64,000 nucleotides of DNA from Escherichia phage T4, in the sequence record OL964735.1; one strand, given 5' to 3'. Shown here one piece after another: positions 40,234-46,522 of this stretch; within the stretch, counting starts at the first letter, position 1, and each line of letters begins with the position of its first letter. Position numbers and translations under genes: made by a program. The notes under the pieces are model-generated. The model was given only the letters and a program-made list of their open reading frames with translations, had not been told where the DNA came from and searched no databases.

Positions 40234-40704
40234 TTAATCATGTTTCCACACCCCATCGGTATTTGACCAAAGTCGCTGATTATCTGATCCTCGCCACAGC
40301 TTTTTGGTCGGAAGATTTTTCTCATACTTCCCATCAATAATAACATCAACATATTTAAGCATTTCTAGTTGTTTAATATCTTCAAACTTATATCCTGTCC
40401 ACAACCAGATATCTTTCTCCGGAAATCTTGCTTTAACCCAAGAAACTAAATTTGAAATCTCTTCTCGGTTCTGTGGATAAAGTGGGTCACCGCCGGTTAA
40501 GGTAAGGCCTTGGATATACGATTTGCTTAAATGGGACGCAAGTTCTTTAACGGTATTCATAGTGAATAACTGTCCGTTACGAGCATTCCAAGTACTACGA
40601 TTATAACAACCTTCGCATTTATGCAAACATCCAGTGACGAAGAGAACGACCCTACATCCAGGGCCGTTAACGAAATCGCATGGATAAATTCTATCATAAT
40701 TCAT
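40234..40704 (-). CDS. nrdG: anaerobic ribonucleotide reductase activating protein NrdG (radical SAM), 156 aa
   Basis: ATG at 40702-40704 gives MNYDRIYPCDFVNGPGCRVVLFVTGCLHKCEGC...; track ORF extends upstream from TTG into mobC. Confidence 0.88.
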   Translation of the reverse strand: MNYDRIYPCDFVNGPGCRVVLFVTGCLHKCEGCYNRSTWNARNGQLFTMNTVKELASHLSKSYIQGLTLTGGDPLYPQNREEISNLVSWVKARFPEKDIWLWTGYKFEDIKQLEMLKYVDVIIDGKYEKNLPTKKLWRGSDNQRLWSNTDGVWKHD

Positions 40705-41326
40705 CTTTATATTTCCAAGTATATCCCTTATGAATAGATTGAATTCCTTTGCAACATTTATAAACAGCAGAATGAAAAAATCCTGCATTTCTTATTTCAG
40801 TTGCTCCAGTTAGTTCTATTGTATTTCCGTCTGGTGAATAGCCAATAACCGTTTTGGTGTTAAAGCGATTTCTAGAACTATTTTTGATATGCTCTTTATG
40901 ATTAGTAGACAAAGTTCTTCCTGTTAGCCCATCAGATATCCTTTTTCCAAAATCATCAGGAAGAGTTACTTTAGACCTAGCTATGCTCATTAGCTTCTTA
41001 GTTTTATCGCTTCTTTTTGCGCCACGCTGATTTTCAAATTTCTTAGCTTTTGCATACGCGTATTGTGAAGAAGTAACTTTTCTATGCTTACTATTACTCA
41101 TTATCCAATATGCATCATACATCTTTCCACCATATATTTTAGCCAATAAATGGTGAGCAGTATAGTGGGCCTTATAAGTTAAAAATACTAAGTTGTCTAA
41201 ATCATCTGAACCACCCATACTTCTTGGAATTATATGATGAAGTTCATACCCGGCTTTAGTTTGACGGGGCTTAGATGGGTGTTCAGCAGAATTAACTAGA
41301 TTTGAATAGATTCTGTCATAATTCAT
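40694..41326 (-). CDS. mobC: HNH homing endonuclease MobC, 210 aa
   Basis: N-terminus MNYDRIYSNLVNS and HNH motif HHIIPRSMGGSDDLDNLV; between nrdD and nrdG. Confidence 0.8.
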   Translation of the reverse strand: MNYDRIYSNLVNSAEHPSKPRQTKAGYELHHIIPRSMGGSDDLDNLVFLTYKAHYTAHHLLAKIYGGKMYDAYWIMSNSKHRKVTSSQYAYAKAKKFENQRGAKRSDKTKKLMSIARSKVTLPDDFGKRISDGLTGRTLSTNHKEHIKNSSRNRFNTKTVIGYSPDGNTIELTGATEIRNAGFFHSAVYKCCKGIQSIHKGYTWKYKDEL

Positions 41327-42602
41327 TGGTGCTTAACCCTATGCATGATTTCTTTATTTTTACCGAGATTAAATCCGCGTTCGTTCGGATTTCCCAAATA
41401 ACCACATGTTCTTCTTATGGTATTCATCTTTTTAGGATCAGTTTCTCCACAAATAGAACAAACAAATCCGTTTTCAGTAGGAGTCATTTCATGGGTACTT
41501 CCACATGTAAAACATTTATCTACTGGCATATTAACACCAAAATAATCTAAATGCTGTGCAGCATAATCCCACACGGCCTCAAGACCTTTTAAGTTATTTT
41601 TCATATCAGGAAGTTCAACATAAGAAATGTGACCACCTGTCGCAATGAAATGATATGGCGCTTCACGAGAAATCTTTTCAAACGGAGTAATATTTTCTTC
41701 TACTGAAACATGGAAACTGTTAGTGTACCAGCCTTTATCGGTAACATCTTTTACGCTTCCATATTTTTCTGTATCGAGTTTACAGAAGCGATAACACAGG
41801 TTTTCAGCAGGAGTCGAATATAAACTAAAAGCAAATCCGGTTCTTTCAGTCCACTGTTTAAGATGAGCATTCATTTTAGTTAAAATTTCTCGTCCAATAT
41901 CACGACCGACAAGAATATTCAATTCGTGAATACCAATGTATCCTAAAGACACTGAACTTCTACCGTTTTTAAATAACTCAATTATGTCGTCATCAGGTTT
42001 AAGACGAACCCCGAATGCACCTTCTTGGTAAAGAATAGGAGCAACAGTAGCTTTAACTCCTTTTAAGGAACTAATTCTACACATCAAAGCTTCAAAACAT
42101 AAATCCATTCGTTCATTAAATAGCTCAACAAATTTCTGTTCATTGAACTGTGTTCCAATATAAGAATCTAACGCGATGCGAGGAAGATTCAGTGTTACAA
42201 CACCAAGATTATTGCGTCCATCAAGAATTTCATTGCCAGTCGAATCTTTCCATACGCTCAAGAAACTACGGCAACCCATCGGAGAAACAGGAACAGATGA
42301 ACCAGTGATAGCTTTATTGTTCTTAGCTGAAATAATATCAGGATACATCCTTTTGCTTGCGCACTCTAGAGCAAGCTGTTTAATATCATAGTTCGGATCG
42401 TCTTTATAAAGATTAACACCTTCTTCAACGAACATAACAAGCTTAGGGAAAATAGGAGTTATCCCATCACGACCAAGACCTTTAATACGATTTTTCAGAA
42501 TTGCTTTCTGAATCATTCGTTCAGTCCAGTCAGTTCCCGTACCAAATGTAATTGTTACAAAAGGAGTCTGTCCGTTTGAACTGAATAACGTGTTCACTTC
42601 AT
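41323..42602 (-). CDS. nrdD: anaerobic ribonucleotide reductase NrdD, exon 2 (codons 181-605)
   Basis: Joining 43636 to 42602 gives ...AYE-Y-EVNTLFSSNGQ... and a 605-aa product; C-terminal glycyl-radical region. Confidence 0.85.
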
Positions 42603-43635
42603 CAATGTGTTCAGTAGAGTTCGCTACTTCTCTACCCGTTTATATGAAACAATGTAATTTGGATAATTGTCATCTAAACACAAATCTTTAATACGACTTG
42701 GGTGGAGTTTTAAATCTTTAGCAGCATCCACAAATGATTTATAGATATTGTCATTTATTTTAACATATTCTGGGACGGGATGAATTGTTATTTTTATATC
42801 TATAACATTTGGATGATTACTAACCTGTTCTTCAGAGCATTTAAGAAATTTTGCAGCTGATTTAAAACTTCTAAATTTATTTCCGGATTTTAAAGCTATA
42901 GAAACAGTCTTTTTAGCCGTTCTACTACCAATATTATTTTTAACATGAGCTTCACTTCTACTATTATTTTTATAATGCTCAATCAATTTCTCTCGTATCT
43001 TATCTTTATGTTTTAAAGATAAGATTTTACCTTTATGGGCATTACTAAGTTTTTGCTTATGTTCTTCTGAATCCGGATATTTGTTAAATTTATATCCACC
43101 TATAGATTTATTAAGAATAAATTCGTTATTAAAATATTTCCTAATAAGCATTTCTTCATGTTTAAGGGCCGATTCATAAGAATCAAAAACTTGAAGAATT
43201 ATCCACTTAGCTTTATAATCTTTAAGCTTTTCTTTAACAAGCTTAGATGACGAATTGTATTCTTTCCAATTTGTATCTTTACCATATATAGTTTTGAATT
43301 TTTTAAAACCTATATAAAAAGACTTATCAGGAAATCTTACCATATAGGTAAATGCTACAGAATTGGCAATTTTTAAGCTTTTTCTTAATTTCCATTTCAT
43401 CGTTTCACCTCGTATTCATATTTATACGAGGATAAACAGCTGCATGTCACCATGCAGTTCAGACTATATCTTCAACTCTTAGAGTTGTCTGCCGTTTCGG
43501 GTCGCTTGACCCTACTCCCTTACATTCATCAGGGATAGTCGTTGGGCATTTACAGCTACTGCTGATTTAGCAACGGATTGTCTCAGTGAGAGTTTCCCGT
43601 TTTAGGCAGATTTTACATGAGCTTGACTTACGTTA
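42603..43635 (-). mobile_element. group I self-splicing intron in nrdD (1033 nt) carrying the I-TevII ORF
   Basis: 5' exon ends in U (43636), intron ends in G (42603); the 1033-nt length and restored frame match the known T4 nrdD (sunY) intron. Confidence 0.85.
42624..43400 (-). CDS. I-TevII: intron-encoded GIY-YIG homing endonuclease I-TevII, 258 aa
   Basis: Entirely inside the nrdD intron; GIY-YIG-like motifs (FTYMVRF ... SFYIGF). Confidence 0.85.
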   Translation of the reverse strand: MKWKLRKSLKIANSVAFTYMVRFPDKSFYIGFKKFKTIYGKDTNWKEYNSSSKLVKEKLKDYKAKWIILQVFDSYESALKHEEMLIRKYFNNEFILNKSIGGYKFNKYPDSEEHKQKLSNAHKGKILSLKHKDKIREKLIEHYKNNSRSEAHVKNNIGSRTAKKTVSIALKSGNKFRSFKSAAKFLKCSEEQVSNHPNVIDIKITIHPVPEYVKINDNIYKSFVDAAKDLKLHPSRIKDLCLDDNYPNYIVSYKRVEK

Positions 43636-44173
43636 ACTCATAAGCTTGGAATGCATCGTATACGTCTTTTTCTGTTTTAGATTGAGCATAATTCAACGCA
43701 TCAGCGATTTGCCATTTTTCTGCATCCTCAATATGTTTTGCATAGGTGCGTTTAACATAAGGAGAAAGTACTTTATCTACATTCGCAAAAGTCGTTCCGC
43801 CGTATTGGTGAGAAGCAACTTGCGCAGTAATTTGTGCCATAATTGCAGTAGCAACTCCAATTGATTTAGGAGTTTCAATCTGCGCATTACCAAGCTTAAA
43901 TCCGTTTTCAAGCATTCCTTTTAAATATACTAAACAGCAATTAGTAAATGGAAGAGCAGGGGAATAATCAATATCATGCACGTGAATAATTCCGCTTTCA
44001 TGCGCTTTCATAATAAAAGACGGGACCATATTTTTGGCAATGTGTTTAGACACAATACCAGCCATAAGGTCCCGTTGAGTTGGAAAAACACGAGAATCTT
44101 TATTAGCATTCTCGTTTAAAAGGTCTTTATTAGTTTTATGAATTAATCCTTCAATTTCTTTTTCAATTGTCAT
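43636..44173 (-). CDS. nrdD: anaerobic ribonucleotide reductase NrdD, exon 1 (codons 1-179 plus first base of codon 180)
   Basis: N-terminus MTIEKEIEGLIHKTNKDLLNENANKD...; the ORF would hit a stop 2 codons into the intron. Confidence 0.85.
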
Positions 44174-44643
44174 TTTAAACTCTTTCTAAGCTGCTTCTTG
44201 AATGAAGCTATTAATTGTGTTTTGGTGTCAGATTCATTATATTCAAATCCTCTTTGAAGCATCTCGGCCATCATTTCCTCTTTTCCTAAACGAGAAAATT
44301 CCTTTGATTTATCTCCAACAAAGTTAGGGTGAATATTATTTTGGGTGTAATCGGATTTTAAATAAGTAAGTAAATTTTCTAACCATTCAAGATAATCAAC
44401 ACCTTGTCCCTTTAAGCCAGAACGATTAAATTTATGCTTCATTTGACCTTCTGCAGCATTGCATAGATTACAAAGCAATCCACGCACCTTTCCTGCTTTT
44501 GGTCCATTTAATTCATGGTCATGGTCGAGGTGATTAGCTTGAACATCAGGATTTAGTTCTCGTTGGCAAATTAAGCATTTACCGTTTTGTGCATCATAAA
44601 ATTTCTGTTTTTCTTCTTTGTATAATTTGCCAGTCAATAACAT
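44170..44643 (-). CDS. 49: endonuclease VII (Holliday junction resolvase) gp49, 157 aa
   Basis: Length and Zn-binding Cys cluster (CLICQ...C..C) match T4 gp49. Confidence 0.88.
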   Translation of the reverse strand: MLLTGKLYKEEKQKFYDAQNGKCLICQRELNPDVQANHLDHDHELNGPKAGKVRGLLCNLCNAAEGQMKHKFNRSGLKGQGVDYLEWLENLLTYLKSDYTQNNIHPNFVGDKSKEFSRLGKEEMMAEMLQRGFEYNESDTKTQLIASFKKQLRKSLK

Positions 44644-44684
44644 AATAAACCCTTACCTTAAATAGATAAGGGTATTTATTATTT

Positions 44685-45170
44685 TCAAGTATTGTAAAAC
44701 ATTTGATGCAATCGCTTATATTGCTGAATCATTCGGTCAGAAAAAGAAATTTGAGTTTCAAGCCATTCAATGTACTCTGCGGCAGCTTGCATTAAATTTC
44801 CTTCATAGCCATCGTTATTTTCTTGTGCAGCTAATTTAGCTAATGCGTATGAAATACGTTCACCTTGAAAATCGGCTTTAGGCTTCTGAACAACTTGATT
44901 AGTTCGCTCTACAACTTCTTCAATTTCGCCATTTTCTACTGATTCAGTATTCCACAAACACCAATACGTAATTGGCTTATCGTAGATGTTAATAATCTTT
45001 CCATCAGAAAGTTCAATTTCAATAATTCCAGTGTCAGGCTCTATATCATCTTCACATTCTTTTACAAGTTCACGAACTTTAAAGACAGTACCTGCACTAA
45101 GTTCCGGCCAGTAATTACACAGCCCTGTATCAGCACGATTAATTCTAAACCATTTATCTACTGTAATCAT
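44685..45170 (-). CDS. pin: Pin (Lon protease inhibitor), 161 aa from ATG at 45170
   Basis: Position next to gene 49 and size match T4 pin; track ORF extends 6 codons upstream from TTG. Confidence 0.65.
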   Translation of the reverse strand: MITVDKWFRINRADTGLCNYWPELSAGTVFKVRELVKECEDDIEPDTGIIEIELSDGKIINIYDKPITYWCLWNTESVENGEIEEVVERTNQVVQKPKADFQGERISYALAKLAAQENNDGYEGNLMQAAAEYIEWLETQISFSDRMIQQYKRLHQMFYNT

Positions 45171-45328
45171 GTCCCATCTCCATATCAATTAAGTCATTTA
45201 TCGTTGGTTCATTATACACCGTTTCTTCATCAGTGTAAACCGGTTCTTCCGGCTCTGGCTCTACAGTTTCCCATCTAGCCGCCCACCAAGGTTTTATAGC
45301 GTAATCCATTCTCGTACTGTCTGAGTTA

Positions 45329-45514
45329 CTACACGTTCTCGAAGCTCAACCAGTTCAACCGATATTGGCATTTACCATCTTGCACCCAGTCTTCTATTTC
45401 GATAGGTTTAAGATAGTCGGAAAAATCGAAATCATAGTTTTCCGAAAATGCATCATGGTCTTCAATGATTTCGCTCAGAACTGCATCAACATCTAATTTA
45501 TTTTCAATATTCAT
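45329..45514 (-). CDS. hypothetical small acidic protein (61 aa)
   Basis: ORF in track. Confidence 0.5.
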   Translation of the reverse strand: MNIENKLDVDAVLSEIIEDHDAFSENYDFDFSDYLKPIEIEDWVQDGKCQYRLNWLSFENV

Positions 45515-45717
45515 TTTTCACACCACCAACTGCTTACTTCAAAATCGGGTTCGCCATGTTCCCAGAACCAGGGGCCGATAGGAATCCACTTACCTTCATC
45601 GGTGACGTCATATTCTTCGGATTTAGCTAACCAAATCATGTATTCATAGAGTTTATATTCCAGGTCGCCTTCTGTTCCATCGCCTAGAAAAATAATTTGT
45701 TCATTTAATTCTATCAT
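45511..45717 (-). CDS. hypothetical small protein (68 aa)
   Basis: ORF in track; ATGA overlaps on both sides. Confidence 0.5.
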   Translation of the reverse strand: MIELNEQIIFLGDGTEGDLEYKLYEYMIWLAKSEEYDVTDEGKWIPIGPWFWEHGEPDFEVSSWWCEK

Positions 45718-45977
45718 TTAAAGTATTCCCGCAATTGGTCAAATCCACCAATATGACTTCCATCAGGAGCAAATACCTGAGGCATTGTTAAGCCGATTTG
45801 AGTATCACGACCTAGTTTAGTCAGAAGCTCAGCAATTTTCTCATCATCAAAAACACCTTTTTCCGGCATAATGTTGATAAATTCAAACGGCTGTTTCTTC
45901 ACAGTCAAAAGACGTTTTGCATTATCGCAATACACACATTTATGAATGTTGCTATCATAACCATATACTTTAAACAT
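45714..45977 (-). CDS. nrdC: glutaredoxin NrdC, 87 aa
   Basis: Sequence MFKVYGYDSNIHKCVYCDNAKRLL... with CVYC active site matches recalled T4 NrdC. Confidence 0.9.
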   Translation of the reverse strand: MFKVYGYDSNIHKCVYCDNAKRLLTVKKQPFEFINIMPEKGVFDDEKIAELLTKLGRDTQIGLTMPQVFAPDGSHIGGFDQLREYFK

Positions 45978-45978
45978 A

Positions 45979-46221
45979 TTATTCCTTAATTCCTAGTACT
46001 TGTTTAAAAGTCTCGTCGTAATCAAGACTTTGGCCCGTTTGTTCTTTATGCTTGTATATAATATCACTTACTTCTGATAGCATATTTTTATATGAACGAG
46101 TTAAAGCAGATTTAAGCACGCTGTATCTATCAGGAAATTTACCGTGTTCATTATAATAAGCTATTGCTAATTCACGGACTGCCTTTTCAGCAGTCTCCAT
46201 ATATTCTTTACGCTTTGTCAT
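45979..46221 (-). CDS. hypothetical protein (80 aa from ATG at 46221; nrdC-proximal cluster)
   Basis: Track ORF (127 aa) overlaps the next ORF; internal [18 protein letters not shown]... removes most of the overlap. Confidence 0.5.
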
Positions 46222-46522
46222 TTTCTTCTCGGTCAAATCGGTGTTTACAATGGCGACATTTATAACGAAGATTATTAGTCTGCCAATGGACCAATTGCAC
46301 CTGTTCAGTTCCACATTCAGGGCAATTAGGAACGTTTTTAGAAGCCCTTTCGCGACGTTCAACCATGACCATTACAGAATCCCAATTAACAGGAGGGCTA
46401 TAATCATCACAACCATAAATCTTTCCACGCATTTCCAGATCGTCTTCTTCACCAGCCATAATAATTTTAATTAGACTAGAATTACTTGAAGCTGCAATGT
46501 CTTCTAATAGACGCTTTTTCAT
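46208..46522 (-). CDS. hypothetical zinc-ribbon protein (104 aa)
   Basis: CPECGTEQ ... CRHCKHRF double CxxC pair. Confidence 0.55.

Follow-up and report, generated by a model that had tools for sequence, protein, structure and literature searches.

The 1033-nt interval 42603..43635 on the minus strand is almost certainly the group I self-splicing intron of the phage T4 nrdD (sunY) gene, which carries a homing endonuclease gene. The intron runs from its first base, U at 43635, to a terminal omega-G at 42603, and lies in a window of 64,000 nt, the whole stretch of DNA that was analysed. When the 64 kb were compared with the 4227 families of Rfam, each at its gathering threshold, as in the covariance-model check suggested in the first-pass annotation, RF00028 (group I catalytic intron) was the sole match, at 43671..43440 on the minus strand. 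This match covered the full model (positions 1-253 of 253) and reached 105.3 bits, where the gathering score is 50 (E 2.8e-26), which is far above chance. The 1033-nt interval is 100% identical to NC_000866.4 44815..45847, which lies inside the nrdD join, and the region around it matches phage T4 records at 100% identity; the surrounding genes nrdG, mobC, nrdD, gene 49 (endonuclease VII), pin and nrdC are those of T4. In both NC_000866.4 and AF158101.6, nrdD is annotated in two joined pieces over 43535..46385 (2851 nt), and with an offset of 2212 between the window and NC_000866.4 this span corresponds to 41323..44173. RefSeq describes the intron as a 'group 1A intron' and places I-TevII at 44836..45612, which is 42624..43400 in the window, with the note 'DNA endonuclease encoded by group 1A intron in nrdD; GIY-YIG family'. 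The element has the same sequence, host gene, insertion site and ORF as the T4 nrdD (sunY) intron with I-TevII (NP_049691), and the intron itself shows no differences; a single base of exon 1 differs from RefSeq (43927 is T here and G in RefSeq), which changes NrdD by D83Y. The sunY intron was described in the 1980s and became a model system for minimal ribozymes, for intron homing and for the choice of the 3′ splice site (P9.0). The element is already known in full detail and nothing in the window itself is new; its value is one of calibration, in that the exact boundaries, the product length and the endonuclease ORF were recovered from the raw sequence alone. This reading is the best explanation, and no contradicting evidence was found. 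The coordinates of the exons, the ORF and the ribozyme helices are collected in Table 1.

Table 1. Features of the nrdD intron and its exons in window coordinates; all pairs of the core helices are canonical.
Feature	Position	Strand	Sequence or remark
nrdD exon 1	43636..44173	-	538 nt: codons 1-179 plus base 1 of codon 180; Pfam NRDD 1.6e-39
nrdD exon 2	41323..42602	-	1280 nt with stop; Pfam NRDD 2.7e-122, Gly_radical 9e-26
I-TevII ORF	42624..43400	-	258 aa: N-terminal GIY-YIG-type nuclease domain plus NUMOD-type DNA-binding region
Catalytic core	43440..43610	-	P3-P9 helices including P7.1, P7.2 and J7/9 AA; Rfam alignment and helix table
P1	43642..43636 / 43622..43616	-	exon UAUGAGU / guide GCUCAUG, 7/7 pairs
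P3	43610..43605 / 43493..43488	-	UCUGCC / GGCAGA
P4	43601..43596 / 43577..43572	-	AACGGG / UCCGUU
P5	43591..43588 / 43584..43581	-	UCUC / GAGA
P6	43571..43570 / 43547..43546	-	GC / GC
P6a	43564..43561 / 43556..43553	-	CAGC / GCUG
P7 (G-binding helix)	43540..43536 / 43466..43462	-	GACUA / UAGUC
P7.1	43535..43531 / 43520..43516	-	UCCCU / AGGGA
P7.2	43512..43508 / 43503..43499	-	GGGUC / GACCC
P8	43486..43482 / 43478..43474	-	AACUC / GAGUU
P9	43457..43451 / 43446..43440	-	CUGCAUG / CAUGCAG
P9.1 hairpin (43408..43431)	43431..43424 / 43415..43408	-	CCUCGUAU / AUACGAGG
P9.2 hairpin (42614..42635)	42635..42630 / 42619..42614	-	GUAGAG / CUCUAC
P9.0	43459..43458 / 42605..42604	-	J7/9 AA / UU
Omega-G	42603	-	terminal intron G
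P10	43626..43624 / 42601..42599	-	L1 loop UCA / exon-2 UGA, 3 bp

The I-TevII gene and its control

The first-pass annotation had placed a GIY-YIG ORF inside the intron, and its position and length agree with RefSeq I-TevII at identical coordinates. At the level of sequence, GIY-YIG is the weakest part of the identification. The Pfam scores of I-TevII all fell below the cut-offs, with PF19835 (SegE_GIY-YIG) at 21.6 bits against 25 (E 2.8e-4), NUMOD1 at 22.5 against 22.8 and NUMOD3 at 18.8 against 20.4, and no match was found to PF01541, to NCBIfam, or to PDB chain sequences using either the single sequence or a 4-sequence profile. The protein matched PHROG 314, 'homing endonuclease' (8e-29), and a search of 5.8 billion proteins returned three clusters, namely a 99% variant, the 56% identical protein of a sister intron lineage described below, and one 31% relative; precomputed matches to both PF07453 and PF19835 are available for the sister-lineage protein (P0002). 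Since this search gave three clusters only, the alignment used for structure prediction was shallow, and the AlphaFold model built from 4 sequences had a mean pLDDT of 65.5, with about 63-85 over residues 14-100. In this model the N-terminal domain takes up a predicted GIY-YIG alpha/beta fold, and of 48,164 PDB chains the one that matched the predicted fold best was the catalytic domain of I-TevI, with other GIY-YIG nucleases ranking next; Foldseek E-values for the model were not significant. In the primary sequence, FTY (17-19) is followed after nine residues by YIG (29-31), and Y19, Y29-I30-G31, E82 and N97 are invariant in a 4-sequence alignment; between YIG and E82 this alignment contains no invariant Arg, the invariant residues there being Y48, S51, S52 and K53. 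This pattern fits an FTY...YIG motif together with the catalytic Glu and Asn, and any equivalence to R27, E75 and N90 of I-TevI is putative. The motif residues and the predicted fold therefore support the GIY-YIG label at the motif and fold level, and not through a curated profile. The earlier label stands in these two respects and agrees with the RefSeq note and with a review (PMC2988022), but it found no backing from Pfam, where PF19835 stayed below its cut-off and PF01541 gave no match.

It is very improbable that the intron still splices while its ORF is a decayed, inactive endonuclease, leaving an element that is no longer mobile. Such a state is known from the T4 nrdB intron with I-TevIII, and it would agree with the sub-threshold Pfam GIY-YIG scores of I-TevII and with the existence of frameshifted copies, of which that in U5 has a 2-nt deletion leaving a 39-aa ORF and that in F1 has one additional A leaving 189 aa. 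However, the T4 ORF is intact at 258 aa, its 56% identity to the sister protein extends along the whole length, and the motif residues named above are invariant among the homologues. Moreover, activity of I-TevII and high mobility of the nrdD intron are both documented in reviews (PMC2988022, PMC1865063), with I-TevII listed as an intron-encoded, active GIY-YIG endonuclease whose target is nrdD (PMC2988022, Table 1) and the nrdD intron described as homing at high efficiency (PMC1865063).

The td intron of T4, which carries I-TevI, resides in the same phage and is likewise a group IA intron with P7.1 and P7.2 and a GIY-YIG endonuclease, whereas its host gene is that of thymidylate synthase. The cut made by I-TevI lies 23-25 nt upstream of the point where its intron is inserted. 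The td intron ORF is looped out of P6a, while that of I-TevII instead lies downstream of P9.1. I-TevII cleaves downstream of the insertion site, reportedly at 13-15 nt from it, as Bell-Pedersen et al. are said to have found in 1990. By phmmer, no significant sequence similarity was detected between I-TevI and I-TevII, and in the T4 record three places matched the nrdD intron query.

The I-TevII Shine-Dalgarno sequence GAGG (43411..43408) is located 7 nt upstream of the AUG and inside the P9.1 hairpin, which has a predicted stability of -15.5 kcal/mol (z -5.3) that none of 200 shuffled sequences reached. By string search, the intron has a single copy of TATAAATA, the late-promoter consensus of T4, at 43426..43419 within the 5′ arm and loop of P9.1, and the motif is conserved in the sister lineage. 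The sigma-70 promoter scan, which does not cover T4 late promoters, returned 7 sites against 7.9 expected. The sole 'terminator' predicted on the minus strand proved to be the P9 helix. For all three T4 intron endonucleases the ribosome-binding site is reported to be hidden when early or middle transcription reads through the intron, and to become accessible on late transcripts, whose start lies within the hairpin; td/I-TevI shares the control by a late promoter and a hairpin at the ribosome-binding site (PMC2988022). By the same arrangement, P9.1 would keep the I-TevII ribosome-binding site closed on read-through RNA of the early and middle periods, and late transcripts starting from TATAAATA would lack the 5′ arm of this hairpin, so that the endonuclease would be made late.

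Spliced nrdD product, ribozyme helices and splice sites

The I-TevII ORF is flanked on the minus strand by ORFs of 181 aa (43628..44173) and 424 aa (41323..42597). Successive parts of the NRDD profile fall on the two sides, with positions 1-141 on exon 1 and positions 146-562 on exon 2, which also carries the Gly_radical match, and the outer ORFs together form the two halves of one anaerobic ribonucleotide reductase gene. Exon 1 ends in ...GCTTATGAGT with T at 43636; the intervening sequence starts with TAACGTAAG at 43635 and ends in ...ACACATTG with G at 42603; and exon 2 begins with ATGAAGTGAAC at 42602. The spliced junction expected from these boundaries is ...GCUUAUGAGU joined to AUGAAGUGAAC, or GAGU joined to AUGAAG in the RNA. 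Removal of the 1033 nt leaves a single open frame of 605 aa, uninterrupted by stops, which reads ...QAYE-Y-EVNTLFSS at the junction, and the annotated span gives the same length, 2851 minus 1033 being 1818 nt, or 605 codons plus stop. In this single polypeptide the NRDD domain is combined with a C-terminal glycyl-radical domain, as in a class III ribonucleotide reductase NrdD. Furthermore, residues 1-293 of the spliced product align over their full length, through AYEYEVNT, with the 605-aa chain of PDB 1H78, the sole exception being D83Y; the exon 1 part (residues 1-179) equals that chain apart from this substitution, and the T4 NrdD chain was aligned in PDB entries 1H78, 1H79, 1H7A, 1H7B and 1HK8. 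In teqhad, nrdD is uninterrupted, encodes 605 aa and has AYEYEVNT at the junction (DNA TATGAAT directly followed by ATGAAGT), and 1749 of its 1818 nt are identical to the spliced T4 gene with no gap, so that nrdD is collinear with its uninterrupted homologue after precise excision. The host gene nrdD, the 605-aa product with its AYE-Y-EVNTLFSS junction and the exact boundaries 42603/43636, all claimed in the first-pass annotation, were thus reproduced, the first by the Pfam matches on both fragments and the PDB 1H78 alignment across the junction, the second on removing the 1033 nt, and the third by the RefSeq join, the collinearity with teqhad and PDB 1H78.

The P3, P4, P5, P6, P7 and P8 strands expected of a group I core were all located and are fully paired, and the intron also has the two additional helices of the IA-type subgroup, P7.1 and P7.2, which follow P7 and precede the 3′ strand of P3. 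P1 and P3 are just 5 nt apart, and hence there is no P2. At the 5′ splice site, P1 is formed with an internal guide and ends in a U·G wobble between the last exon U (43636) and G14 (43622), right after which the splice site lies, while the 3′ end of the intron is an omega-G accompanied by P9.0 and P10. The catalytic core lies within 43400-43635, where the first-pass annotation had placed it, but the ribozyme as a whole exceeds this region: P1 uses exon positions 43642..43636, and P9.2, the 3′ strand of P9.0 and the terminal G make up the last 33 nt (42635..42603), downstream of the ORF. P9.2 spans the ORF end, with the UAG stop codon inside its loop, and the stability of this hairpin alone was not above that of shuffled sequence (z -1.0).

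That the same intron is spliced at other boundaries, using a different in-frame U...G pair, is less probable still than a decayed endonuclease. The reading frame alone leaves room for it, since of 3803 stop-free in-frame U...G joins counted, 25 yield products of 600-610 aa, and four of these, the proposed join included, remove exactly 1033 nt; the earlier claim of a unique in-frame join was overstated. However, only the 43636/42603 join matches the intron-less teqhad NrdD and the crystallised T4 NrdD, and only this join follows the U·G of a 7-bp P1 and the G after the P9.0 strand. In the sister lineage these P1 and P9.0 pairings are retained, either unchanged or through compensation, and the insertion boundary in the DNA cannot slide, because intron base 1 is T and exon-2 base 1 is A, and the last intron base is G and the last exon-1 base is T. 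The alternative junctions were rejected, as they fail the collinearity and pairing tests; what singles out the junction is its collinearity with the intron-less homologue together with P1, P9.0 and P10, whereas the reading frame alone does not. Least probable of all is a gene in pieces, in which nrdD, interrupted by a homing-endonuclease cassette, would be translated separately as two polypeptides that come together with no splicing of the RNA, the arrangement reported for nrdA of Aeromonas phage Aeh1 (cited in PMC3653736), and for which automatic annotations of T4 and its relatives listing two NrdD fragments and a homing endonuclease might speak: the ORF is enclosed by a complete group I ribozyme, no start codon or ribosome-binding site in exon 2 is positioned for initiation at residue 180 (its longest ORF starts from a GTG three codons downstream of the junction), the crystallised NrdD is a single 605-aa chain through the junction, and curated records give nrdD as a join.

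For the self-splicing nrdD intron, the structural prerequisites were all observed, comprising the core match, the helices, the boundaries, the spliced product, the collinearity, the hairpin and promoter motifs and the predicted endonuclease fold. Guanosine-dependent self-splicing is reported for the three T4 introns and treated as established, and the splicing chemistry and homing outlined here are taken from the same literature (PMC2988022, PMC1865063), catalysis, expression timing, cleavage and homing being drawn from published work or by inference. Splicing would start with the pairing of exon UAUGAGU with the guide GCUCAUG in P1. In the first of two transesterifications, a free guanosine bound in P7 would attack after U 43636 of the terminal U·G pair. 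The terminal G 42603 would then take the same P7 site, placed there by P9.0 (AA/UU) and P10 (UCA/UGA), and in the second step the freed exon 1 would attack after G 42603, joining GAG-U to AU-GAA. Codon 180 (UAU, Tyr) would thereby be restored, giving the 605-aa glycyl-radical reductase. The I-TevII ORF sits peripherally between P9.1 and P9.2, outside the catalytic core.

A sister intron at the same nrdD site

A distant blastn search with the intron identified the T4-type intron, at 99% identity or more, in 24 records, and in about 44 further records a sister intron whose identity is about 66% across 96% of the length. Carriers of the T4-type intron include T4 stocks, RB55, RB59, PST, fPS-2, U5, EC128 and G8; those of the sister intron include the Tequatroviruses GRNsp7, HY03, JK45 and F1, as well as SHSML-52-1. 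By alignment to teqhad, the GRNsp7 insert is 1045 nt long and lies after nrdD nucleotide 538 as in T4, with U as the last exon-1 base, U...G as the ends of the insert, and A as the first exon-2 base. The sister intron (1045-1046 nt) resembles that of T4 in insertion site, P1 guide, helix set, the hairpin holding TATAAATA and the Shine-Dalgarno sequence, and ORF position. It differs in its endonuclease, which is 56% identical, in longer P7.2 and L9.1, and in many compensated helix changes. The exon-2 allele beside the sister intron is ATGAAGTAAATACAC..., whereas that of the T4 type is ATGAAGTGAACACG....

Helix compensation was judged pair by pair, between two distinct lineages only (T4-type and sister), and in this comparison 15 of 15 helices were fully paired in both T4 and the 1045-nt sister intron. 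P1, P7 and P9 are identical in the sister lineage, and compensatory double changes were found in P3, P4, P6a, P7.1, P7.2, P8, P9.0 and P9.2. P3 is UCUGCC/GGCAGA in T4 and CCGGUC/GGCCGG in the sister, P6a is CAGC/GCUG in T4 and GUUC/GAAC in the sister, and the sister P7.1 and P7.2 are ACCGU/GCGGU and GAAUAG/CUAUUC. In P9.2 (GUAGAG/CUCUAC in T4, GCAUGA/UCAUGC in the sister), four of the six pairs differ with the pairing kept. P9.0 is AA/UU in T4 and AU/AU in the sister, the pair 43458:42605 having changed from A-U to U-A, a compensation of direct relevance to the 3′ splice site and consistent with the part that P9.0 plays there in the sunY intron, as reportedly described by Michel et al. in 1990.

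Among 695 phage records with matches to the flanking exons, only 24 had the T4-type insert, and this patchy distribution fits that expected of a mobile element. I-TevII would make a double-strand break in intron-less nrdD near the insertion site, and repair from the intron copy would spread the intron. No description of competing homing lineages at the nrdD site was found in the literature searched. The T4-type and sister introns occupy the same nrdD site beside different exon-2 alleles and carry endonucleases only 56% identical; on this basis one might tentatively suggest, though we consider it rather unlikely, that they represent two homing lineages in competition, in which the specificity of the endonuclease has diverged together with the target sequence.

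A sister lineage of the nrdD intron and its endonuclease

A sister nrdD intron of 1045-1046 nt, about 66% identical to the T4-type intron, was found in about 44 phage records, and no account of this lineage was found in the searchable literature. It is inserted at exactly the T4 nrdD intron site and encodes an endonuclease with 56% identity to I-TevII, and the exon-2 allele beside it differs from that of T4 (ATGAAGTAAATACAC... vs. T4 ATGAAGTGAACACG...).

Decayed natural copies of the endonuclease gene are present in phages U5 and F1. In U5 (L009), the I-TevII ORF carries a 2-nt deletion at the position equivalent to window 43290..43289 and stops after 39 aa, and in F1 a 1-nt insertion follows position 785 of the GRNsp7-type intron and cuts the ORF short at 189 aa. 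Both phages retain intact ribozyme parts. In a terminator scan, the P9 helix of the T4 intron together with the downstream CUGUUUAUCC was flagged as intrinsic-terminator-like, and this site is a structural ribozyme helix.

Coordinates of features in and around the nrdD introns
Feature	Location	Strand	Evidence or remark
Sister nrdD intron (GRNsp7)	L003 1766..2810		also in L006 (HY03) and L007 (F1)
P9 terminator-like site	window 43440..43457	-	terminator scan
T4 intron tail, 3′ of I-TevII ORF	window 42603..42623		
T4 exon 2 start	window 42573..42602		
teqhad exon 2 start	L002 1766..1795		intron-less nrdD
210-aa HNH endonuclease ORF (mobC)	window 40694..41326	-	Pfam HNH 3e-6; PHROG 655 4e-43; RefSeq annotation

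Stock variation and the neighboring mobC gene

At window position 43927 (nrdD exon 1, codon 83) the base is T, whereas NC_000866, OZ209023, Y00122 and other T4 records carry G; the T changes NrdD Asp83 to Tyr, a few positions C-terminal of the Cys-Cys pair in FTNCCLVDL, and Asp occupies this position in PDB 1H78, teqhad and GRNsp7 alike. Since this T was otherwise present only in OL964745.1 among 588 matching phage records, the window and that record, titled 'Mutant Escherichia phage T4 clone T4_7t1', seem to derive from related laboratory stock. The match of T4_7t1 to the nrdD intron ends at intron position 1001, and its annotation joins a homing endonuclease directly to a truncated nrdG, which together indicate a deletion that took out the intron 3′ end, all of mobC, nrdD exon 2 and a portion of nrdG. 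This deletion is absent from the window (compared at about 40700..42635 with 3591..4711 of L010, OL964745.1).

The 210-aa HNH ORF, flanked by nrdD and nrdG and overlapping the end of each, is the T4 free-standing homing endonuclease mobC, whose activity and target are entered as not determined in PMC2988022.

The exon 2 start and the flanks of the I-TevII ORF

Compared with the intron-less teqhad allele, T4 nrdD shows silent differences that are clustered within the initial ~20 nt of exon 2 (T4 ATGAAGTGAACACGTTATTCAGT vs. teqhad ATGAAGTAAATACTCTCTTTAGT), and the last exon-1 codon holds a further one, GAG in T4 vs. GAA in teqhad. I-TevII is reported to bind and cut in this region, and the cluster may be due to co-conversion tracts or to variation of the target site. 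The intron tail (CGAACTCTACTGAACACATTG) is like the exon 2 start (…GTGAACACGTTATT), with 11 of 17 bases identical at the best offset. This resemblance agrees with the observation of Loizos et al., cited in PMC3984707, that the sequences on either side of the I-TevII ORF are similar to the homing site of the enzyme, a likeness taken as evidence of invasion of the intron by the endonuclease gene.
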